From NCBI RefSeq assembly GCF_001481685.1, contig NZ_CP006867.1, forward strand, positions 690,001 to 722,000: a DNA stretch of 32,000 bases. The letters run 5' to 3'. This document shows positions 2,270 to 15,255 of the stretch, in pieces. This DNA comes from Ignicoccus islandicus DSM 13165. Its GTDB lineage: Archaea > Thermoproteota > Thermoprotei_A > Sulfolobales > Ignicoccaceae. The notes beneath the pieces are model-generated. The model was not told the origin of the DNA and did no database searches. It saw nothing but the letters and a program-made list of their open reading frames with translations. The stretch's first letter is position 1. Every line of letters begins with the position of its first letter. Both the position numbers and the translations under genes were made by a program.

Positions 2270-4423
2270 ATGATGAAGCTAAAGGGCAGAATAAGAGTGA
2301 AGCTCAGCAGGTTAAGAGCACCAGAAGAATTAGCGAAGTTAACTATTACGTTAGCGATAGTCGTTTCAATAATAGTCGCATTAGCAATAGTTTACGTTAA
2401 CCTAACTGATATAGCGATTGTGATGGTTAACGGAGACGTAATATTAAAGGGAAAAGTTAGCTCGAACGAGGTCTTATATGCTTATGTAATTAGAGAAAGC
2501 GCGCGTCCACTAATCTCTTATATTGACCCGAGTTTACCATTAATCAAGTACCCGCTTATTGCGCTCGATGACGAAGCCACCGTTATTGACGCTATTCCTC
2601 TCGTAACATGTGAGACCTACACGAGACTCATAAAAAATGAGGTAATTGCAACCTATATGTGTAATGGAAAATCCTTCATGAAGGTAGTATCACCCCAATT
2701 GTCCACCATTTCATTAATTGGAGGTAACGTAACTTCGATTTCTTTGGAATTCTTCCCTAATCATTTGCTAAGTTATGATTTCGATAGTACTACTCTTAGG
2801 ATGAAAGCGCTTCTCCCATTTCTAAATATGAGCTATACTCTCTCACTAAAACTGAAAGGATGTTCTATAATGAACGTTAAAGCGACTCCTTGGAGTAAGT
2901 TAATAATATACACACAACCTACAGCGAATAGTTGTAAGATAGAGTTACGTAACCTAAGTTTATGTTTCGAAGGTATTACTGAATATATGGAGAAAAGCTG
3001 TCAACCCTCACCTTTATTCGTGAGGTTTCTTGCTTATTCTATGAACGGATTAATGAACGTGATTGCGATCATAATAATGCCCCTGATCGCAGTAATTACG
3101 TGGAGAAAAATAAGAAACGAGTTGAGAACCCCACGTGGTTTCTTCGTCTTCGTCATTTTAATGAGCTTCATGGGATCAATAACTGCTCTTCATTGGGATG
3201 CCATAATGAGTTACTATTTCGCTAAGTATTCTTTCGATCCTATTTCTCTCTATAAATGGACTTATTCGAATCAACTGATGGCTAAGGTGAAGCTCCCGAG
3301 CCATTATCCTATGTTCGCAGGCTACACATACATAACGCCTTGGATAGCCATTCTATTATTCCCACTCTCATTTATTCAATCGCTTTTCAATCCAACAGGT
3401 TTTCTATATACTCTTACGCCGGATGCGTTAACTCTCGGTATGTACTCACTTTGGACGTTTAAACTCAATCACCTAATATACTATTTTACACTAGGATTAT
3501 GGTTCGGCATTTTCTTGTATGCCACATATCTTATTGCGAAAAGGATATTTGAAGAAGAGAAAGTATTGATGTTTATGTATTCGCCCTTTACCGTTCTAAT
3601 AACATTTTATTGGAAGATGTTTGAACCAATGCTTCTACTCTTTTTAGTCTTAGTGATATATATGGTTTCAAAAAGTAAGAAGCATTACTTGATTTCCGGC
3701 TTCTTTGGTGGAATCGTTACTACTAAAGTATATGGAACTATCTACCTTCTCCCTTTTATAAAATATATTTCTAAGAGGAAATTGGTTTTAGCTCTCCTTG
3801 GCATATTAATTTCCTATATTCCTTCTTTAATAATAGTAAAGAGCCTCGGATTGGATAAATTCATTTTCATTACGTTGTACTATCAAAGCCATAGAGAGAT
3901 AGCAGCGGTTAACTACTTCCCACTGATTCTAGGGGAGCCTATTAAAATAATAACCTCGTTCGGTAACTTGGCTATGGTAATTGAAATATTTCTATTTGTC
4001 TTAGTGTTTGCGCTTTTCTTAAAGTACGGTCGTATAAGATCTATAAGAGATCATCTAATCTGGTCTATTGCAATGATAGTCCCTTATATGATTTTCAACA
4101 AAATCGTTTCGCCTCAAAACTACTTGTTTATGTTATTTTCACTCTACGTATTAGGTTTAACAGAACTGGCGAACTTGCTTTCAATCACTCTAACCCTTTA
4201 CGTAATTTCGGTGTTTCCAACCGTTTTCTACTTTGCACTTTCTGGAATGACGTATTTGGGTAAGTACTATTTCTATGCTAAGGGCAGTGTGTTTTCAGTT
4301 ATTGCCTACCTCTTCGAAGCCTTTGTTAGACCAATAGCTTGGTCCTTTTTGGTTGCCATGATAATTGTTATCAATGGAATCGCTTTAATGAGGGTACTAG
4401 AAGAAGCCCTCACGGAGAAATAA
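2270..4423 (+). CDS. Large polytopic membrane protein, function unknown (GT-C-like topology is only a guess)
   Basis: 717-aa ORF. It has an N-terminal hydrophobic anchor, then a roughly 230-aa non-hydrophobic Cys/N-x-S/T-containing domain, then many long hydrophobic segments rich in F/Y/L/I. I recognised no catalytic motif (no WWDYG). Confidence 0.6.
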   Translation: MMKLKGRIRVKLSRLRAPEELAKLTITLAIVVSIIVALAIVYVNLTDIAIVMVNGDVILKGKVSSNEVLYAYVIRESARPLISYIDPSLPLIKYPLIALDDEATVIDAIPLVTCETYTRLIKNEVIATYMCNGKSFMKVVSPQLSTISLIGGNVTSISLEFFPNHLLSYDFDSTTLRMKALLPFLNMSYTLSLKLKGCSIMNVKATPWSKLIIYTQPTANSCKIELRNLSLCFEGITEYMEKSCQPSPLFVRFLAYSMNGLMNVIAIIIMPLIAVITWRKIRNELRTPRGFFVFVILMSFMGSITALHWDAIMSYYFAKYSFDPISLYKWTYSNQLMAKVKLPSHYPMFAGYTYITPWIAILLFPLSFIQSLFNPTGFLYTLTPDALTLGMYSLWTFKLNHLIYYFTLGLWFGIFLYATYLIAKRIFEEEKVLMFMYSPFTVLITFYWKMFEPMLLLFLVLVIYMVSKSKKHYLISGFFGGIVTTKVYGTIYLLPFIKYISKRKLVLALLGILISYIPSLIIVKSLGLDKFIFITLYYQSHREIAAVNYFPLILGEPIKIITSFGNLAMVIEIFLFVLVFALFLKYGRIRSIRDHLIWSIAMIVPYMIFNKIVSPQNYLFMLFSLYVLGLTELANLLSITLTLYVISVFPTVFYFALSGMTYLGKYYFYAKGSVFSVIAYLFEAFVRPIAWSFLVAMIIVINGIALMRVLEEALTEK

Positions 4424-5319: not shown

Positions 5320-6245
5320 GCAAGAAAGTGGATGAGTTCGTAACGAAAACCGAGGAAGAACTCGAAAAGCCTACCGAGGAGGAACTAGAGGAACTAGAAA
5401 AGGAGTTAGAGGAAGAGACGGAGGAAGAAGAGCTGCTCGAGGAAGTAGAGGAGAAGAGCCCACCACCCAAGGAATTAGTTCAGAAGAGAAAGTTCTTAAA
5501 GCGTCAAAAGGATAAGGACATGTTTGAAACTGTAGAGGAGGTATTCGATACCTCAACTCTTATGGCTGTTTACGAACTGATGAGGAGAGGCGTTATAGGT
5601 GAACTTTTCGGAACGATCTCTGCAGGGAAGGAGGCTAGGGTTTACTGTGCAAAGTCTCCGGAAGGAAAGGATCTCGCAGTAAAGATATATCTAACTAACA
5701 CAGCCGAGTTCAGGAAAGGCATCAGGAAATACATTCTAGGAGACCCTCGCTTCGAACAAATAGCTAACAGAGGACTTAGGAGACTTATCTACGCATGGGC
5801 TAGGAAGGAGTTTAGGAACTTGAAGAGATTCGCTAAGGCTGGTATTAGGGTACCGGAGCCTATATCTGTCTATAAAAACGTACTCGTAATGGAGTTCATT
5901 GGTGAGAACTGCAAACGTGCCCCACTCTTAGTCGAGCTAGCCAAACCAGAGAACAAGCTAAGCACTGAAGAATGGCAAAAGATATTCGATACGGTCGTTG
6001 ATTACATGGTCAAAATGTATCAGAAAGCTAAATTAGTACACGCGGACTTAAACGAGTTCAATATAATGTACTGGCAAGGCGAACCTGTAATAATAGACGT
6101 CAGTCAAGCGGTACCTCTAAGCCACCCCTATGCAGACGAGTTCTTAAGACACGACATACAGCAAATTAGGAGGTTCTTCAGTTCCGTTGGCGTGGAGGTT
6201 CCTAGCTTCGCCGAACTTTACTCTAAGATAACTGGCATGGAATGA
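5316..6245 (+). CDS. rio1: RIO-type serine protein kinase (Rio1)
   Basis: 309-aa ORF with RIO-domain motifs: ISAGKEARVY, LAVKIY, VLVMEFIG, HADLNEFNIM and IIDVSQAV. It has a Glu-rich low-complexity N-terminus. The GTG start overlaps the aIF-1A stop (GTGA). Confidence 0.9.
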   Translation: MSKKVDEFVTKTEEELEKPTEEELEELEKELEEETEEEELLEEVEEKSPPPKELVQKRKFLKRQKDKDMFETVEEVFDTSTLMAVYELMRRGVIGELFGTISAGKEARVYCAKSPEGKDLAVKIYLTNTAEFRKGIRKYILGDPRFEQIANRGLRRLIYAWARKEFRNLKRFAKAGIRVPEPISVYKNVLVMEFIGENCKRAPLLVELAKPENKLSTEEWQKIFDTVVDYMVKMYQKAKLVHADLNEFNIMYWQGEPVIIDVSQAVPLSHPYADEFLRHDIQQIRRFFSSVGVEVPSFAELYSKITGME

Positions 6246-8572: not shown

Positions 8573-9571
8573 ATGGATAGGAGAATACTTTTCGCTCTTT
8601 CACTAATTGCGGTCAGTACCGAAATAGTAATTGGTCTTAGCATTGACAAGTTCTGGAGCGTCAAGTTACAAGGCACGGAAGGAATAAAGTTTTCGGCAGA
8701 CGGTTACCTAGGCGTAGCCGGAACTGATGGATGTGCGTACGTATTTGATATCCAAGGGAACTTACGTCAGAAGGTGTGTCGAACGGAAGGCATGTCTGAC
8801 GTATCGTCTTTTAAAAACATATTTGCTTTCTCATGTTACGATGGCTACGTTTACGTGATCGATCCAGAGAAGGGATTGGTTGGCGCTCACTTCGTTGGGT
8901 TTGGGAGTAGCGATGCGATTACGTTACTATCAGATGGATACATTGCGTGCAAATGGGATTGCGTCTACTATAAGTTAGGGGAGATTCGTTGGAAGCTCCC
9001 ACTTCATTGGGTTGAGAACGGACCTGCAGTTTACATGAAAACAGTTTATATTCCCGAAAGAGACCTTAAGGAGTTGCTAATAGTATCTTTAGGAAACGGT
9101 GAAATTAGATATCGAATAAGGTTTAGGTCTCCGGTTTGGCATGCAACCGTATGTTCCGGAAACCTCGCAGTGGCAACTTCTAATAGCGTTTATATATTTG
9201 AAATTTTCGATCTGACGAAGCCACGTGAAATACTTGCAATTAATGCAAGCAAACCGTTTAGAGTATCTTTCTCTCCAGATTGTAACTACATAGCTATCGC
9301 GGACGCTTCGAGGTACCTAAAGGTATACGACCTCAAAGGAAACCTAACCCTTAGCATAGAGCTCTCTAATAACGCTACTTCCGTTGATTGGTGGAGCCGA
9401 TACATTGCCGTAGCGCTCGCAGATGGTACAGTCGAGGTTTACGTTATACATGTACCCTTGTTCAAGTCACTCTCTGAGTACTTCTTGCCTATATTAGTGC
9501 TACCGCTACTACTAGCGATCTCTGGAATCATACTTTATAAGAGGAAAAAGGATTCTTATTTAAAATTCTAG
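8573..9571 (+). CDS. Secreted, C-terminally anchored beta-propeller (PD40/WD40-like repeat) protein, paralogue A
   Basis: 332-aa ORF with an N-terminal signal-like hydrophobic segment, repeated DG..YV.D and FSPDCNYIAIAD (PD40-like) motifs, and a C-terminal TM helix followed by a basic tail (YKRKKD). It aligns by eye along its full length with ORF 12131-13177. Confidence 0.7.
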   Translation: MDRRILFALSLIAVSTEIVIGLSIDKFWSVKLQGTEGIKFSADGYLGVAGTDGCAYVFDIQGNLRQKVCRTEGMSDVSSFKNIFAFSCYDGYVYVIDPEKGLVGAHFVGFGSSDAITLLSDGYIACKWDCVYYKLGEIRWKLPLHWVENGPAVYMKTVYIPERDLKELLIVSLGNGEIRYRIRFRSPVWHATVCSGNLAVATSNSVYIFEIFDLTKPREILAINASKPFRVSFSPDCNYIAIADASRYLKVYDLKGNLTLSIELSNNATSVDWWSRYIAVALADGTVEVYVIHVPLFKSLSEYFLPILVLPLLLAISGIILYKRKKDSYLKF

Positions 9572-9712: not shown

Positions 9713-11215
9713 ATGGACTGGTTAAAGAAAATAGCAGACGAAATAATAAAGAGAGGAGGTAAGGCGTTCGTTATCGCTTCAGGCATGACTACCTCAGGAC
9801 CAGCTCACTTAGGTACGTTAAGTGAATTCATTTACCCATATTCTATAGCTCAAGAACTAAAGAAGAGGGGCTACGATGCGGAATTCATATTCGTTGCAGA
9901 CATTATGGACGCATTCGATGACATACCTCTAACTCTGAAAGACAAGGCAGAAGAGCTGAAGAAGTACCTAGGCAAGCCGCTCGCAGAGGTTCCAGATCCC
10001 TATGGTTGCCACGACAGCTACGGCGAGCACTTCCTCGCGGAATTTTTGGAACTCATGAAGAGGTTTGGAATAGAGCCTGACGAAGTGTTTAAGGCATCTG
10101 ATCTATACAAAGAAGGATGGTATGACGACTACTTGAGGTTATTTGTTGAAAGGAGAACTGAATTGAAAAAGATAATGGAAGAAACCGCTATGAGGAAGCT
10201 GCCCGAAGATTGGTGGGACTTCGTTAAGCCAATATGTGAGAAGTGTGGAAGGATAGATAAAACGAAGGTAAAGAAGGTCGAAGGCGATAAAATATATTAC
10301 AAATGCGAAGCATGCGGTCACGAAGGATCAATCGATATATCTTCTCATAGATGGAAGCTTGCGTGGAGAGTCGATTGGCCTTCTAGGCAAGATTTCTTGG
10401 GCGTAGATGCGGAAGGAGGCGGAGTGGATCACTTCACTAAGGGAGGTTCGTGGGATACGGCCCGAGAGATACATAAGAGAATTTTCGGGAAAGAACCACC
10501 AGTTGGTTTCAGGTACGGATTCGTACTAATGGATGGTAAGAAAATGAGTAAGAGTAAGGGTATAGGAGCTCTCAACGAAATAATGGCCTTACTTCACCCA
10601 GCGGTAATTATGTACTTCATTCTGAAACACGATATCGTTGAAAACAAGAACTTCAAAATGAACCCAAGGTTCCTGCTTCAGTTATATGAAGAATATAGGA
10701 GGGTTGCCCTCGGGGAAGATAAGGACCCCAAGAGAGTGAAAGCGTGGGAACTAAGTGGTAAAAAGGTGTGGAAAGTAGGTTTCGCTGATCTCTTAGTGTA
10801 TTACCAGATATATAGGGATTGGAAGAAGGTTGCAGAACTCGTTGGAGACGTTGAATCCATCAAAGACTTAGCACCGTACGTTGAGGAATGGATCAAGAGG
10901 AACTTCGTTCCAGATGAATATAAGGTAGAAATTAAACAAGGAAAAGTTGGCGATCCCAAAGGCTGCGAGTTCCTTTCAAAGCTAGCTCAATTACTTAAAG
11001 AAGAGATGAGCGATGTAGAGATACATAACGCAATTTACGAAATAGCGAGAGAACTCGGACTCTCTCCCAAAGAGGCATTCAAGTACGTGTATCGGGTTTT
11101 GTTAGATAGCGACCGGGGACCGAGAGCTGGGAGATTGATCAAAGCTATAGGGGTAAAGAGGGCAAGGGACATGTTCCTTAAGGCTTGCGAAGACGAACCC
11201 TCAAAAGTACGTTAA
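9713..11215 (+). CDS. lysS: Lysyl-tRNA synthetase, class I
   Basis: 500-aa ORF with a HIGH-type motif (GPAHLGT) and KMSKSKG. AEVPDPYGCHDSYGEHF and KLAWRVDWPSRQ match archaeal class I LysRS from memory. A CxxC...CxxC zinc knuckle is present. Confidence 0.9.
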   Translation: MDWLKKIADEIIKRGGKAFVIASGMTTSGPAHLGTLSEFIYPYSIAQELKKRGYDAEFIFVADIMDAFDDIPLTLKDKAEELKKYLGKPLAEVPDPYGCHDSYGEHFLAEFLELMKRFGIEPDEVFKASDLYKEGWYDDYLRLFVERRTELKKIMEETAMRKLPEDWWDFVKPICEKCGRIDKTKVKKVEGDKIYYKCEACGHEGSIDISSHRWKLAWRVDWPSRQDFLGVDAEGGGVDHFTKGGSWDTAREIHKRIFGKEPPVGFRYGFVLMDGKKMSKSKGIGALNEIMALLHPAVIMYFILKHDIVENKNFKMNPRFLLQLYEEYRRVALGEDKDPKRVKAWELSGKKVWKVGFADLLVYYQIYRDWKKVAELVGDVESIKDLAPYVEEWIKRNFVPDEYKVEIKQGKVGDPKGCEFLSKLAQLLKEEMSDVEIHNAIYEIARELGLSPKEAFKYVYRVLLDSDRGPRAGRLIKAIGVKRARDMFLKACEDEPSKVR

Positions 11216-11339
11216 GTCAAAGAGAAGGAATATTTAGCTAAAAGTGTATCTTTATGGTCGGGAATAATAACGTGGAGTCCGATAACTCAACATTGGTCGT
11301 TGCGGCATGGGGGGACGTTTATTAGGGTTAATTAGGGTA

Positions 11340-12062
11340 GTTTGCTGTAGATTAGGAGCCCTTGCGGGGCGATGGGAGCAACGTTCCAAGCTCCTTAGGG
11401 CGCCTTATCCTAGATGGGAGCCCCGTGCCTAACTTAGGTGAGATATAATGAAGAAGTCTTCATGCAAATCTACTCTACCCGAATGGGTGAGAGGTTGGTT
11501 AGCTGGGATAATTGATGGCGAGGGCACAATTACCCTTAAAAAGAAACGGCGAAAAGATAATGGGAATATTAACTATATACCCTTGACAGTTATAAATAAC
11601 ACTAACTTAGAGTTTCTTGAGAGAATTAAAGAAATTTGTGGATGTGGAACAATAGCACAACAATCTTCCTCGTATACAAAGAAACATCCAAATTGGAACT
11701 TAATTTATAGGCTGGAAATAAAAGGTTCATTTAATGTAAAAACTCTACTGAAACAAGTTTATCCGTATCTAATCATAAAACGTAAGCACGCCGAGATAGT
11801 TATGAGAATATGTGAAGAGAACATTAGAGCGTATTCGTTAAACCGACCAGCAAATACAGAATACTTGGAGAAACTCATTCAAGAACTTAAGTCTTTAGCA
11901 AAGGGAGGAAGAAGAAGCGCTGTTGGGCTCGATGGCCGCCCATGACCCCACAGCCTCCAAGAGGGGTTGTGGACGAAGTGGAAGTCTCTAGAGGCGACCC
12001 TTATCTTACAAGGGAAGACCCTCTAGGCACAAACGGCATCTTCCCGATAACGTTCGAATCGG
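11340..12062 (+). mobile_element. Intron-like or mobile RNA element carrying the LAGLIDADG ORF (boundaries uncertain)
   Basis: An A+T-rich ORF is embedded between GC-rich segments dense with helices. Upstream these are 11354-59/11390-95 and 11364-70/11420-26. Downstream they are 11948-55/11965-72, 11988-94/12020-26, 11998-12002/12010-14, 12012-18/12039-45 and 12044-48/12058-62. A possible long-range pairing joins GTGCCTA (11424-30) with TAGGCAC (12024-30). I could not identify a host gene or a clean bulge-helix-bulge motif. Confidence 0.35.
11448..11945 (+). CDS. LAGLIDADG homing endonuclease, single-motif (I-CreI-like homodimer type)
   Basis: 165-aa ORF with WLAGIIDGEGTI, a canonical LAGLIDADG motif with the catalytic acidic residue. 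The downstream pattern (NL.FL..I....G.G.I, Y.L.I, LL..V.PYL..K...A) is colinear with I-CreI-type enzymes. A strong SD, AGGTGA (11436-11441), lies 6 nt upstream of the ATG. The ORF is visibly more A+T-rich than its flanks. Confidence 0.85.
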   Translation: MKKSSCKSTLPEWVRGWLAGIIDGEGTITLKKKRRKDNGNINYIPLTVINNTNLEFLERIKEICGCGTIAQQSSSYTKKHPNWNLIYRLEIKGSFNVKTLLKQVYPYLIIKRKHAEIVMRICEENIRAYSLNRPANTEYLEKLIQELKSLAKGGRRSAVGLDGRP

Positions 12063-12130
12063 AGCGTAATTATTCATCGAGAACCAGCTCGAAGGGGGTT
12101 AGGAAAGCGAATACCCATTTAAAAACTAGG

Positions 12131-13177
12131 TTACTCCCTCTTCCTCCTCAGCTTAGGCATCAAGAACGCAGCTGCCAGAGCAATGACCGGAATCTTCGAT
12201 ATGTTCAGCGTAGTGGTGGAACTGGAAGTCGTCGTGGTTGTCGTAGTAGTGGTTGTTACTGGCTGAGGGGTATATCCAACTACTCGGTACATCTCAACCT
12301 TACCGTCCCAATTACCTCCGTCATGGAGCAAGTAGCCAACTGCTAGCCTATCCCTCCACCAAGCTACGCTCCAAGTTCCGCCCATGTACTTGGAATAGAC
12401 CACGTCCCCGTTAATGTCGAATATATTGAGCATGTTGCGGGTATCGGCCACTGCTATGTACTTGCAATCCGGAGAGAAGGCAGGAGTGTGTTCCCCCCAA
12501 CCAACGTTCAGCCCGACGCTCTTCCACAACAGCCTAGGATTGACTGGATCGGAGATATCGTAAACGTACAGCTCATCAGCGATTACCGCTAGGTAGTTCC
12601 CGCAAGCGTTGACGCTACCGGTATAGTAATCGTAGCTTATCTCCTTGACTATTTCCCCAGTGTCTAAGTCAAGTATTTGGAGCTTGTAGCTCCCATGGTT
12701 AGCTGCGTAAACGTAGCCCTTGTGGACTACGACGTCTTGAACCTCACCGCCAACGTTAGTGTCCCAGTACTTATTCCCATTGAAGTCGTACTTGGCACAG
12801 TACCCATCGCAAGCTATGAAGCCTTTATCGAAGAGGACAATTGCAGTATCGTGGCTGTCCCCAACCGCTATCTTCTTCCAGAAGGTTCCGTTTTCGTAGA
12901 AGAGGTAGACGTAGTCATCGAGATTGACGAACCCGAACACTCCGTTGGAGTAGCCGGCCCCATCCATACTATATCTTCCGCACTTCTTCCCAAGCAAGTT
13001 CCCGTTGGGATCAACAATGTAGGCGCAATTGTCCCAAGAGGCTATTCCCAAGTTGCCGTTGGACGAGAGGGCCATGTCTCCAATGACATCGCTAGGCTGA
13101 TCGAAGGTCCACAAGAGCTGTAAGTCCAATGCGTGTAGGGCTACCGCTAGCAGAGCTAAGGCGAGAGGTATCCTCAT
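12131..13177 (-). CDS. Secreted, C-terminally anchored beta-propeller (PD40/WD40-like repeat) protein, paralogue B, with Thr/Ser stalk
   Basis: 348-aa ORF with a signal peptide-like N-terminus (ALALLAVALHA), CAYIVDPNGN, FSPDCKYIAVAD and WSVAWW motifs colinear with ORF 8573-9571. It ends with a T10-S3-T3 linker, a TM helix and a basic tail (KLRRKRE). Confidence 0.75.
   Translation of the reverse strand: MRIPLALALLAVALHALDLQLLWTFDQPSDVIGDMALSSNGNLGIASWDNCAYIVDPNGNLLGKKCGRYSMDGAGYSNGVFGFVNLDDYVYLFYENGTFWKKIAVGDSHDTAIVLFDKGFIACDGYCAKYDFNGNKYWDTNVGGEVQDVVVHKGYVYAANHGSYKLQILDLDTGEIVKEISYDYYTGSVNACGNYLAVIADELYVYDISDPVNPRLLWKSVGLNVGWGEHTPAFSPDCKYIAVADTRNMLNIFDINGDVVYSKYMGGTWSVAWWRDRLAVGYLLHDGGNWDGKVEMYRVVGYTPQPVTTTTTTTTTTSSSTTTLNISKIPVIALAAAFLMPKLRRKRE
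12209..12256 (-). repeat. Low-complexity Thr10-Ser3-Thr3 coding tract (probable O-glycosylated stalk)
   Basis: Sixteen consecutive Thr/Ser codons using mixed synonymous codons (ACN/TCC/AGT), read directly from the sequence. Confidence 0.8.
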
Positions 13178-13649: not shown

Positions 13650-15162
13650 ATGTACAATAAATCAATATTGGTCGTTGCTGTATGGGGAGTTCCCTTCGGT
13701 TGAGAGAAGGTCGAGTATGTCCTTCCGAACTCATCTGAAACCTTCGTTTGCAGATCCTCAACGTTTCCATTGCTTCTCCAACTTTGTAGAGACGGGAAGA
13801 ACGTATACGAAAAAGTATTCCTTTTGGACTCGTCTGTTTTAGTTCGTTCGAGAAATGAGTGCGTTCAAAGGACAACAACATCAGATAAGCTACCGGAGGC
13901 TTCTAACAGCTATAATGAAGTGATTAAGTACGTTAAACAGAGAACGTTCGAGTGGGGTCCGAAAATGCGGTTGCCCGGATCACGAATACGTTAGTGAAAT
14001 AATAACGTTCTCGGTAAACCAAACGTAGGTAGGTACGGTAATTGGGAATACAGCTATTTCATGAGAAATAGCGTAGAACCTTATTCGTTAGCATACCCAT
14101 TAATGGTTTTAGACCTATTAAGGACGGTAATCGAATAGGAAACCAGATGAAATAGTAGTAGATCTCTCTCACGGCCCGAATTACGTAGTCGCTTCCCTAA
14201 AGGACGCCGTCCTTGACGTGGCTAAGTTATATTCCATGACCCTCCAGCGAGAAGTAAAGGTAGTGTTCTATAATAGCAACCCATTACCTTTTCCATTTCC
14301 GAAAAGCGAAATCCCTCGAATACCGATCCATAAAACAGACGAAGTTCTAATAAGTCCCCGAGAAGCGGCCGAAGACGTAGCCCTTGAATTAAATAGAAAA
14401 GGCGAGTCACCTAAATCCATACTAAAGCTTGATTCAAGATTTTTTGAGGGAGGGGAAGCTAGTGAGTATCATAGGGTTCTAGATAGCGCATTTAAAGTAA
14501 ATGCGAATTTACTAAGAAAGTACTCAATAGCCTCGGCCAGGGTCTTCGCTTATTCGATGGCCCTGGCGGGGGCTTATATCGCTCGAAATCTACTCAGCTT
14601 CAATTACGATTATTTGAAAGGAGCAAAGCACCTCGCAGATACGCTCTTTAATGGACTAATAAGTAAAACCTTAATCAATAGATCCTCAAAGAGAATAGAA
14701 TTACCTATGAGGGTAAAGGGTAAGGAATTAGTTGCCTTGCTAAAGGCCTTCGCACTAAGCTATTACATTTTAAAGAAATACGAATCCGAGCTTGGTACTC
14801 AGAGACTTGCTGAGGTGGAGGGAGAAGGACTCAGTCTCAATGAAATGGAATTAATGTCGCCACACCTAAGTAGCTTCTACAAGAGCGTACTCGAATCGGA
14901 AATTAATGACTATGAAAGGAAATGCGTTAACGAGAACAAGGGTTGCGATATTGTAATAGATAAAGGGAGGTGGTCCAACGAAGAATGCAATATCAGTTCT
15001 CCTAATCCTCGACATATGAAGGCCCATATAGGTCTTGAGAAAAACCTCGTCGAAAGCAGAATAGATAATGGAATCTTACGAATTAGGTATAGGAAATTGG
15101 AAGGGAAATATTCGAAATGCTGGAAGAAGATACTTGATGAATTATCTAAGCCCCAGTTTTAG
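13650..15162 (+). pseudogene. csx1: Decayed CRISPR-associated CARF-HEPN gene (Csx1 / DxTHG-motif family)
   Basis: The frame starting at ATG 13650 reads MYNKSILVVAVWGVPFG-TGA-EKVEYVL, with a stop at 13701 where the family has Trp (WG.P.GW..V.Y). Further in-frame stops are TAG TGA at 13992-13997 and TAG at about 14131. Between those stops the same frame reads KPNVGRYGNW..F. A +1 shift then leads into ..IVVDLSHGPNY (the DxTHG motif, 14161-14181). This runs on into an intact 314-codon ORF (14218-15162) that carries an R-x4-H HEPN motif in the context PRHMKAHIGLEKN. Confidence 0.75.
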
Positions 15163-15167
15163 TGAAG

Positions 15168-15255
15168 TGGTGCGGGGGGTGGGATTTGAACCCACGCAGG
15201 CCTACGCCATCGGGTCCTGAGCCCGACCCCTTTGGCCAGGCTCGGGCACCCCCGC
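15168..15255 (-). tRNA. tRNA-Leu (anticodon CAG), class II long variable arm, CCA encoded
   Basis: The reverse complement folds as a cloverleaf. Acceptor stem GCGGGGG/CCCCCGC. D-loop AGCCTGGCCAAA. Anticodon stem TCGGG/CCCGA with loop CTCAGGA. Variable arm GGC-GTAG-GCC. T arm GTGGG-TTCAAAT-CCCAC. Discriminator A followed by CCA. No intron. Confidence 0.93.

Follow-up and report, generated by a model that had tools for sequence, protein, structure and literature searches.

The 32,000-nucleotide stretch analysed here (the window; Ignicoccus islandicus DSM 13165, NZ_CP006867.1, positions 690,001 to 722,000, numbered below from its first letter) carries an open reading frame (ORF) for a small LAGLIDADG homing endonuclease. 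On the evidence set out below, this ORF is likely to be a free-standing gene of the I-CreI type nested in a hairpin loop of an omegaRNA, the guide RNA of the RNA-guided nuclease TnpB, within an IS607-type element, and the window would hold a stripped, non-autonomous copy of that element. As part of this likely reading, the gene would occupy the apical loop of a hairpin, itself conserved and situated toward the 5' side of the RNA scaffold, and, in intact elements, would at the same time lie in the 3' tail of tnpB.

At 11315-12036 the window has a 722-bp, non-autonomous element that derives from an archaeal IS607-family transposon. It retains the left end (LE), the last 30 codons of tnpB, a putative omegaRNA scaffold and the right end (RE), in the order LE, 5' part of the omegaRNA, endonuclease gene, 3' part of the omegaRNA and RE (Table 1); tnpA and most of tnpB are lost. 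The TnpB of a relative, L003 (loci collected for comparison carry L numbers), matched the window by tblastn with 65% identity over 31 positions, the stop included (E=1e-6). Across the 32-kb window, tblastn for TnpA and TnpB returned nothing beyond this remnant (11356-11448), and tblastn together with motif searches found no second copy of the transposon. Since the copy lacks tnpA, and lacks tnpB beyond 30 codons, only a non-autonomous derivative is possible.

Elements of the IS607 family insert after GG or a G-rich motif, with the transposon-associated motifs (TAMs) AGGAG and GAGGG, terminate in GG or CGG and carry repeat units at their ends (PMC13565253); the absence of terminal inverted repeats and of a target duplication also formed part of the comparison. 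In the window, GGGGGG is followed by a left end opening with ACG, the right end closes with AAACGG, and two TTAGGGT repeats in the LE are matched by two GACCCT motifs, their inverted copies, in the RE. A G-run likewise stands just before the left end in L095 (GAGAGGG), L008 (TAAGGG), L011 (GAGGGGG) and L015 (CTGGGGG). The repeat pair TTAGGGTAGTTTAGGGT recurs in the LE just upstream of tnpA in L008 (4128, 4138) and L095 (2759, 2769), and the 12-mer TTAGGGTAGTTT is exactly common to the left ends of the window and these two relatives. The borders were set from two independent insertions, L095 and L008, which start right after GGG and stop at CGG; the loci all cease to resemble one another directly after A(A/G)ACG(G/C), which in the window is the terminus ACAAACGG (AAACGG), with its last nucleotide at 12036. 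In TnpB/omegaRNA systems the guide is the sequence adjoining the right end (PMC13565253), and the corresponding segment of the window is listed in Table 1. A TnpA with helix-turn-helix (HTH) and Resolvase domains plus a TnpB, which also belong to IS607 elements, are missing from the window copy; both proteins are encoded in relatives L004-L006, L008, L009, L096 and L097.

A protein search placed the endonuclease in a small family (58-99% identity), every member of which comes from metagenomes or metagenome-assembled genomes (MAGs). Homologues with 58-80% identity lie directly behind tnpB. The endonuclease gene is immediately 3' of a TnpB gene (Pfam MJ0013 and Cas12f1-like_TNB) in L003, L004-L006, L008 and L009, the last two from Desulfurococcales MAGs, and tnpB itself stands behind a serine-recombinase tnpA (HTH_17 and Resolvase) in L004-L006, L008 and L009. 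In L003, L004, L008 and the window, the tnpB stop overlaps the endonuclease start as ATGA or TAATG. The short forms L011, L012 and L015 have the same layout as the window, and no TnpA or TnpB match was found in them at E<=1e-3. The tnpB gene is split into two ORFs in L009 (4739-5971) and internally deleted in L003 (307-1053; 248 aa), the endonuclease gene being intact in both; in L015 it is the endonuclease gene that is frameshifted (3989-4159). Scans of viral contigs for the endonuclease family and for TnpB returned only distant (27-35%) LAGLIDADG genes and no TnpB relative.

Relatives of these transposons that carry no endonuclease gene define the insertion. A search with the L008 TnpB (399 aa) returned 558 relatives at E<=1e-10, and 10 of these were read in sequence; eight are 409-424 aa long and one 461 aa, and a C-terminal tail is present in all 10. 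The TnpB of L095 is 83% identical to that of L008, and neither L095 nor a tnpA-tnpB element of Desulfurococcus mucosus (L096/L097) contains a LAGLIDADG gene. In both L095 and L097 the tnpB ORF continues through the C-terminal tail (...LVDDRP MPLGGRPMNPRPEVAVLPMRVW...GMTL and stop), the DNA of which corresponds to the structured segment downstream of the ORF in the window, and the tnpB stop is followed by 10 nt before the element ends (...CTAGGGACAAACGG). L095 has itself lost about 440 bp within tnpA (2744-3008), leaving a 69-aa HTH fragment beside an intact tnpB of 424 aa.

By BLASTN, L095 and L008 are collinear save for a clean 517-bp insertion in L008 (5957-6473), which falls between L095 positions 4146 and 4147. 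The point of insertion, gatgaccgcccc^atgccgttgggcggg, is the 9-nt loop of the hairpin CCGCCC(CAUGCCGUU)GGGCGG, and the same hairpin stands uninterrupted in D. mucosus L097. In the window, the left junction of the cassette comes after about 11429. As DNA, the uninterrupted hairpin is a pseudo-palindrome, with 7-8 of 11 positions symmetric about the central C of (A/G)TG[C]CGTT (L095, GATGACCGCCCCATGCCGTTGGGCGGGAGG; D. mucosus, GGAGGGCCGCGTGCCGTTCGGCCCCATG; reconstructed for the window type, GATGGGAGCCCCGTGCCGTTGGGCTCGATGG), and the endonuclease cassette is located within its central 9 nt. The loop also encodes the TnpB peptide (V/M)P(L/F), present in nine of the 10 endonuclease-less TnpBs read. 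Such a sequence suits a homodimer of the I-CreI type, and we infer that the uninterrupted hairpin DNA would be the site actually recognised by the endonuclease. A preliminary description of the window, made from its letters, had proposed a search for an endonuclease-less allele; one was found in transposon relatives L095 and L097, but not as an empty site at the window locus.

The sequence on both sides of the cassette specifies a conserved RNA structure, whose helices include a stem-loop (SL1), the stem of the interrupted hairpin (H1), hairpin 2 and stem 3. Four helices were assessed in an alignment (A3) of 11 sequences, in which the cassette had been removed from nine endonuclease-bearing loci and two uninterrupted loci were included; L090 stands outside A3, and the alignment is partly uncertain in hairpin 2. 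The four helices are paired in 77.5% of cells versus 62.1% in shuffles, none of 500 of which reached the observed value, and sliding the partners by 1-3 columns lowers pairing to 34-47%. Both sides changed in 20 of the 27 pairs of these helices, including 9 of 10 in hairpin 2 and 6 of 7 in stem 3. H1 covaries across the ORF (GAGCCC/GGGCUC in the window, GAGGCC/GGCCUC in L011, GAGGCU/AGCCUC in L009, CCGCCC/GGGCGG in L008 and L095, and, read outside A3, GAGGGC/GCCCUC in L090), and several of its changes alter amino acids in both overlapping ORFs. RNAalifold predicts H1, hairpin 2 and a long stem 3 closing just ahead of the terminal AAACGG, and in the minimum free energy (MFE) fold of the window's whole 707-nt RNA, 11418-11424 pairs across the ORF with sequence just before 11931. 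SL1, at whose base tnpB homology begins in all short forms, is predicted in both MFE and centroid folds; its outer stem covaries (L009, CCCTACGGGGC/GCCCCGTAGGG; L094, CCCACCTAGGC/GCCTAGGTGGG; L011, CCTGCAGGG/CCCTGTAGG), and SL1 and both RNA halves are kept in all short forms. The structured flanks of the preliminary description are thus conserved and covarying, with two halves that pair across the ORF. The particular 7-bp pairing it had put forward, GTGCCTA (11425-11431) with TAGGCAC (12024-12030), can form in the window, whereas L003 (TAGGGAC) and L011 lack the complementarity; it is therefore probably not the functional one.

The conserved RNA of L095 and L097 falls inside the final ~45 codons of tnpB, with 10 nt of the element following the stop codon. 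A structured RNA that overlaps the tnpB 3' terminus and continues to the right end is the known architecture of omegaRNAs, or right-end element RNAs (reRNAs) (PMC13565253). Position and covariation therefore suggest that the interrupted RNA is the omegaRNA scaffold of TnpB, in which case it would be an undescribed archaeal scaffold. The window-type tail is no longer a conserved protein frame, because changes in hairpin length shift the frame; constraint on this tail acts on the RNA.

Several properties of the ORF and its surroundings that the preliminary description had pointed out were borne out. The ORF, of I-CreI size and with a single motif, lies between lysS and a surface-protein gene, as gene calls confirmed (Table 1), and a composition scan gave it a G+C content of 0.25-0.41, against flanks reaching 0.54-0.56 (11300-11419) and 0.55-0.60 (11900-12019). 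The ORF runs at its end into the G+C-rich segment: its final 8 codons and stop fall within the conserved RNA, the C-terminal codons VGLDGRP and stop being read from host RNA sequence. The internal Shine-Dalgarno (SD) motif is present, and all relatives keep a purine-rich counterpart, which in L003, L012, L015, L090 and L091 is GGTGA or GGAGG, 6-9 nt from the start. Part of the window's motif is paired in the MFE fold, within a small local hairpin (UGCCUAACUUAGGUG region, 11425-11441) that could modulate translation. ARAGORN and Rfam, run across the whole 32-kb window, returned no rRNA or tRNA host for the ORF, the sole Rfam match at gathering score being a tRNA-Leu at 15171-15255. The 9-nt direct repeat GATGGGAGC was found at 11371 and 11413, and both copies are kept in L003, L011, L012 and L015; by itself, a 9-mer repeat is near chance expectation at such a length. 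The two copies form part of an apparent tandem duplication of about 42 nt (11358-11429), involving the left half of the target hairpin and visible at the peptide level as ALRGDGSHAPS resembling ALDGSPVPKS. The duplication occurs in all window-type elements (L003, L011, L012, L015 and L090) and in none of the L008/L095/L097 type.

The 165-aa product of the ORF matches Pfam LAGLIDADG_1 (E=2.8e-6, above its cut-off) and LAGLIDADG_3 (E=2.5e-5). A family profile searched against the PDB recovered I-MsoI (7.6e-11) and I-CvuI (4e-9), as well as I-CreI and the archaeal I-Vdi141I. An AlphaFold2 model (mean predicted local distance difference test, pLDDT, 86.1; predicted template modelling score, pTM, 0.81) has the alpha-beta-beta-alpha-beta-beta-alpha core fold of about 150-170 aa expected of the I-CreI type, and its best Foldseek matches were I-CvuI (5a74, E=2e-9), I-CreI, I-MsoI and I-Vdi141I, with template modelling (TM) scores of 0.69-0.77. 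The profile and structure comparison called for in the preliminary description thus places the protein in the I-CreI/I-CvuI/I-MsoI type, with the archaeal I-Vdi141I also matched. E25 aligns with D20 of I-CreI, the DGEG motif being present in all close family members, and K111 aligns with K98 of I-CreI and is invariant in the family. Residues 151-165, encoded by host RNA sequence, are modelled as a disordered tail (pLDDT ~50). Judged by its sequence, the protein is apparently a catalytically competent, I-CreI-sized LAGLIDADG enzyme.

Pairwise ratios of nonsynonymous to synonymous substitution (dN/dS) for the endonuclease gene are 0.05-0.25, with saturated dS, and include pairs without a working tnpB; the gene has therefore been kept by selection over a long time. 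Between the window and L011, both short forms, the synonymous difference (pS) is 0.72 and the nonsynonymous difference (pN) 0.11 (dN/dS 0.05), so that short forms too have long been under constraint. The ratio between the window, where tnpB is absent, and L003, where it is truncated, is 0.14.

The endonuclease gene and the RNA that surrounds it differ in their affinities. In L091 the gene is closest to those of L009 and L012 (80-82% at the nucleotide level) and the RNA flank is closest to that of L004 (80%); between L009 and L012, the gene is 93% identical and the RNA 62%. Given this discordance, the endonuclease gene seems to move between transposon lineages. Where a homodimeric LAGLIDADG protein is encoded at the midpoint of a target that is conserved, symmetric and multicopy, this is classically the mark of a homing endonuclease gene at its own site, and for this reason we propose homing into endonuclease-less copies. 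The endonuclease would recognise the DNA of the uninterrupted hairpin in such copies, a pseudo-palindrome of ~23 bp centred on (A/G)TGCCGTT, and would cut it there; repair off an endonuclease-bearing copy would then insert the gene, with the multicopy transposon serving as host gene. The insertion may be tolerated since the stem could still close around the ~0.5-kb insert, much as with ORFs in group I intron loops, and the TnpB tail would be dispensable. In intact elements the endonuclease would be translated by stop/start coupling to tnpB, and in the window copy transcription would probably start from the left-end (former tnpA) promoter.

A number of observations weigh against this proposal. 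No clean empty site for the window locus was found in the three closest LysS relatives (86, 81 and 73% identity): L098, the closest (86%), lacks the entire stretch from 11216 to ~13890, and L099 and L100 differ in gene order. L008 and the window type have apparent insertion points ~5 nt apart, and at its junction the window type has a TGCC-like duplication of 4-5 nt, which classical homing would not produce. About a dozen endonuclease-bearing loci formed the whole sample. Rfam at E<=1 on L004, L008, L095 and L097 returned only tRNAs and no RNA family that would fit, RAGATH-18 included; with no match even in uninterrupted versions, the omegaRNA is identified by analogy. With each homing event, the covariation of H1 could be taken over from ancestors without the endonuclease, and hence it does not prove that H1 forms or matters after insertion. 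Finally, the strong and lasting purifying selection, the conserved translational coupling and the survival of the gene where tnpB is gone would also suit a protein of use to the element and not just to itself.

The last point leads to the alternative that fares best, in which the endonuclease is a domesticated or integral accessory protein, either a maturase-like chaperone in the folding or processing of the interrupted omegaRNA or a protein nuclease that supplements or replaces TnpB in retaining the element, and the short form is a functional endonuclease-plus-RNA unit. LAGLIDADG maturases are a known precedent for such a role. Besides the dN/dS values of 0.05-0.25, low also where tnpB is absent or truncated (window-L011 and window-L003), the ORF stays intact despite a broken tnpB (L009), an internal deletion in tnpB (L003) or its loss (the window, L011 and L012), its coupling to tnpB and its SD motif are conserved, and SL1 and both RNA halves persist in all short forms. 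The strong constraint and the survival in tnpB-less copies are why we regard an accessory or maturase-like role as unlikely and not as negligible. However, the endonuclease is missing from close relatives (83% TnpB identity), and elements of that kind greatly outnumber those with it (558 TnpB matches in all), so that the gene is not integral. Moreover, the protein has kept its catalytic residues, its gene is inserted at the point about which a palindromic site is symmetric, the signature of self-targeted invasion, similarity of endonuclease and flanks is discordant, and the variable empty donor sites targeted by TnpB would be unrecognisable to a protein of fixed specificity. A related and equally doubtful idea is that the endonuclease-bearing omegaRNA is a dual-purpose transcript, both LAGLIDADG mRNA and guide scaffold, with the short form a (semi-)autonomous mobile unit in which the endonuclease replaces TnpB or cooperates with it. 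If true, the endonuclease would act, for example, as a maturase-like factor for a split scaffold or as the element's own homing engine, and the locus would record a natural hand-over between RNA-guided and protein-guided homing systems.

Less probable still is that a dead transposon left the window copy as an inert relic, whose ORF and foldable flanks survive only because decay is recent. The loss of tnpA and tnpB, the lack of a partner TnpB or TnpA within the 32-kb window, the frameshifted endonuclease gene of L015, which shows that such copies do decay, and the absence of 11216 to ~13890 from L098 all agree with it. Yet the ORF is full length with its catalytic residues and SD, both sets of subterminal repeats and both RNA halves are intact, and near-identical copies occur in two separate samples. 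Long-term constraint, seen in the pS of 0.72 and pN of 0.11 between the window and L011 (dN/dS 0.05), is what makes an inert relic unlikely.

The preliminary description had favoured an intron-like setting and offered three readings of it. For the first, an ORF-containing intron in an unrecognised noncoding RNA gene, the interrupted gene is there, in the form of the putative TnpB omegaRNA scaffold, but no intron signature accompanies it. That the ORF sits in a bulge-helix-bulge (BHB) or group I intron, whose splicing restores the omegaRNA, the tnpB frame or both, is highly improbable. The ORF does interrupt a structured RNA gene, the flanks pair across it, and downstream of the cassette in L008 the tnpB tail still has an open, conserved frame that precise excision would rejoin; crenarchaeal splicing endonucleases also tolerate relaxed motifs. 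Nevertheless, a scan of nine loci (3-nt bulges, 4-bp central helix, 3-4-bp outer helices) gave scattered hits only, with no helix-bulge-helix-bulge-helix (hBHBh') at the junctions and none recurring at homologous positions, and the helix adjoining the insert lacks staggered bulges. At E<=10 on 11150-12250, Rfam returned nothing meaningful, with no Intron_gpI or other intron, RNase P, SRP or RAGATH family, and the P3-P8 core of a group I ribozyme was absent both there and at E<=1 on L004, L008, L095 and L097. Only ~20-60 nt of sequence is neither host nor ORF, too little for a ribozyme core, and in the window type the tail frame is shifted by hairpin length changes, so that no protein would be restored. 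The third reading, a free-standing endonuclease/structured-RNA mobile unit, holds part of the truth, as does the first. The second, an rRNA-type intron at an ectopic site, does not hold. The flanks, not recognised as such in the preliminary description, are the left end, a tnpB 3' remnant and the right end of an IS607-family transposon. Homology to tnpB and its omegaRNA disposes of minimal RNase P or permuted SRP RNA as identities of the flanks.

Around the element, two paralogous beta-propeller surface proteins flank lysS, the second with a Thr/Ser stalk and a C-terminal anchor (Table 1). In L098, a csx1-like gene lies directly behind lysS; the window thus has an additional segment, 11216 to ~13890, in which both the transposon derivative and the second propeller gene are located. 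The window's own csx1-like gene is weakly recognised (ORF 14218-15162, Csx1_HEPN, E=1.9e-4; the L098 homologue matches Csx1_CARF at E=1.3e-17), and its CARF part (13893-14135) and the remainder (14146 onward) do not share a reading frame, which suggests a frameshifted pseudogene or an assembly error. Genes for tRNAs occur near related elements. The short form of L011 lies ~90 nt downstream of a tRNA-Leu(UAA) gene on the opposite strand (2972-3059), and ~100 nt past its right end a tRNA-like sequence with a long insert (GGGCCCGTAGCTCAG...GGTTCAAATCCCCCGGGCCCGCCA, ~3850-3990), uncalled by ARAGORN, may be an intron-bearing tRNA. About 1.3 kb downstream of the IS607-type element, L097 (D. mucosus CP002363) has a tRNA gene (5557-5662) that, set against the Rfam tRNA model, contains an insertion of 32 nt in the region of the variable loop.

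Table 1. Features of the window in and around the IS607-type element (coordinates in window numbering).
Feature	Coordinates	Strand	Remarks
Beta-propeller surface-protein gene, first paralogue	8573-9571	+	
Class I lysS	9713-11215		5' neighbour of the endonuclease locus
G-run GGGGGG	11309-11314	+	directly 5' of the element; expected IS607-type G-rich/GG target and TAM-like flank
LE remnant	11315-11357	+	two subterminal TTAGGGT repeats, 11322-11328 and 11332-11338, 3-nt spacing
tnpB 3' remnant	11356-11448	+	last 30 codons and stop, EPLRGDGSNVPSSLGRLILDGSPVPNLGEI and stop; stop overlaps endonuclease start (TAATG)
SL1 stem-loop	11358-11401	+	GCCCU..GGGGC[GAUGGGAGC AAC GUUCC AA]GCUCC..AGGGC; holds first GATGGGAGC copy
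Left half of interrupted hairpin	11413-11429	+	GATGGGAGCCCCGTGCC; H1 5' strand GAGCCC, 11418-11423
Shine-Dalgarno-like AGGTGA	11436-11441	+	6 nt 5' of ATG
LAGLIDADG endonuclease ORF	11448-11945	+	165 aa, single motif WLAGIIDGEGT
Right junction TGTT and H1 3' strand GGGCTC (11925-11930)	11921-11930	+	from alignment with L095 and L097; pair counts
3' domain: putative omegaRNA scaffold, tnpB C-terminal-tail relic and RE	11931-12036	+	hairpin 2 (11948-11957/11963-11972); stem 3 (11984-11994/12020-12030); GACCCT at 11996 and 12017
Flank 3' of right end	12037-12056	+	CATCTTCCCGATAACGTTCG; predicted guide segment if omegaRNA is still made
Beta-propeller surface-protein gene, second paralogue	12131-13177	-	3' neighbour of the endonuclease locus
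csx1-like gene	13893-15162	+	
tRNA-Leu(CAG)	15168-15255	-	sole Rfam/ARAGORN feature of the window

The closest known composites are IStrons and the ORFs in group I intron loops. IStrons are group I introns fused with an IS605 or IS607 element that carries tnpB and an omegaRNA (PMC13565253; bioRxiv 10.1101/2023.11.20.567912). The elements described here resemble them in joining selfish elements into one composite, with sequence common to a TnpB transposon and a second element of RNA-based or homing nature, and in their IS607-type ends (insertion after GG, terminus CGG) and frequent loss of tnpA (PMC13565253). Unlike in IStrons, the partner is a protein-only homing endonuclease gene inside the putative omegaRNA scaffold, not a ribozyme at the 5' end of the transposon, the host is a hyperthermophilic archaeon, and tnpB too can be lost while the endonuclease gene persists, whereas loss of tnpB alone is not seen in IStrons (PMC13565253). 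As with ORFs in group I introns, the ORF lies in the terminal loop of a structured-RNA helix that can close, and its end overlaps the RNA structure, but the host RNA is no ribozyme, is not excised and has no intron core, being instead the putative guide RNA of an RNA-guided nuclease. Full-text literature searches found reviews and work on IStrons; nothing that they returned describes an omegaRNA or tnpB with a protein homing endonuclease gene nested in it.

The protein itself is comparable to the group I intron-encoded I-CreI, I-CvuI and I-MsoI and to I-Vdi141I, encoded in an archaeal rRNA intron, all of ~160 aa with one motif and the same fold. It conserves the metal-binding acid and the K98 equivalent of the I-CreI group, and its gene interrupts a pseudo-palindromic site at the middle, the arrangement to be expected of a homodimer. 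It differs from that group in sharing only 16-24% identity, in residing in a transposon guide-RNA and 3' coding region and not in an rRNA intron or intein, and in having no surrounding splicing element. Free-standing homing endonuclease genes, such as those behind intronless homing in T-even phages, likewise have no intron or intein, lie in or next to a conserved target and have mosaic flanks. They spread by cleaving endonuclease-less alleles followed by recombinational repair, and the same is proposed here. The T-even phage genes, in contrast, are mostly of the GIY-YIG or HNH type and lie between phage genes, and the present one is a LAGLIDADG gene inside a protein- and RNA-coding gene of a multicopy transposon. 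With IS607 elements and their deletion derivatives, which resemble miniature inverted-repeat transposable elements (MITEs), the relatives share a serine-recombinase tnpA and tnpB, an RNA overlapping the tnpB 3' end up to the right end, insertion at a G-run, a CGG terminus and subterminal repeats, and the window copy has kept only the ends. They depart from other IS607 elements in carrying a third, intact gene and a scaffold that matches no Rfam family, RAGATH-18 included, and the window copy departs further in having neither transposase nor TnpB.

If the proposed reading is correct, selfish elements would be nested here in three layers, a homing endonuclease in a TnpB guide-RNA gene in a serine-recombinase transposon, in hyperthermophilic archaea. 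The niches of LAGLIDADG proteins, so far introns, inteins and free-standing positions in phages, would then extend to the omegaRNA of a transposon. The hairpin loop would mark a natural site in a TnpB scaffold that seemingly tolerates a 0.5-kb insertion, which is relevant to omegaRNA engineering, and the family would offer a putative thermostable I-CreI-type enzyme with a predictable target. The locus would also allow conflict or cooperation between two homing systems to be put to the test, and would explain an otherwise puzzling orphan endonuclease in a crenarchaeal chromosome.

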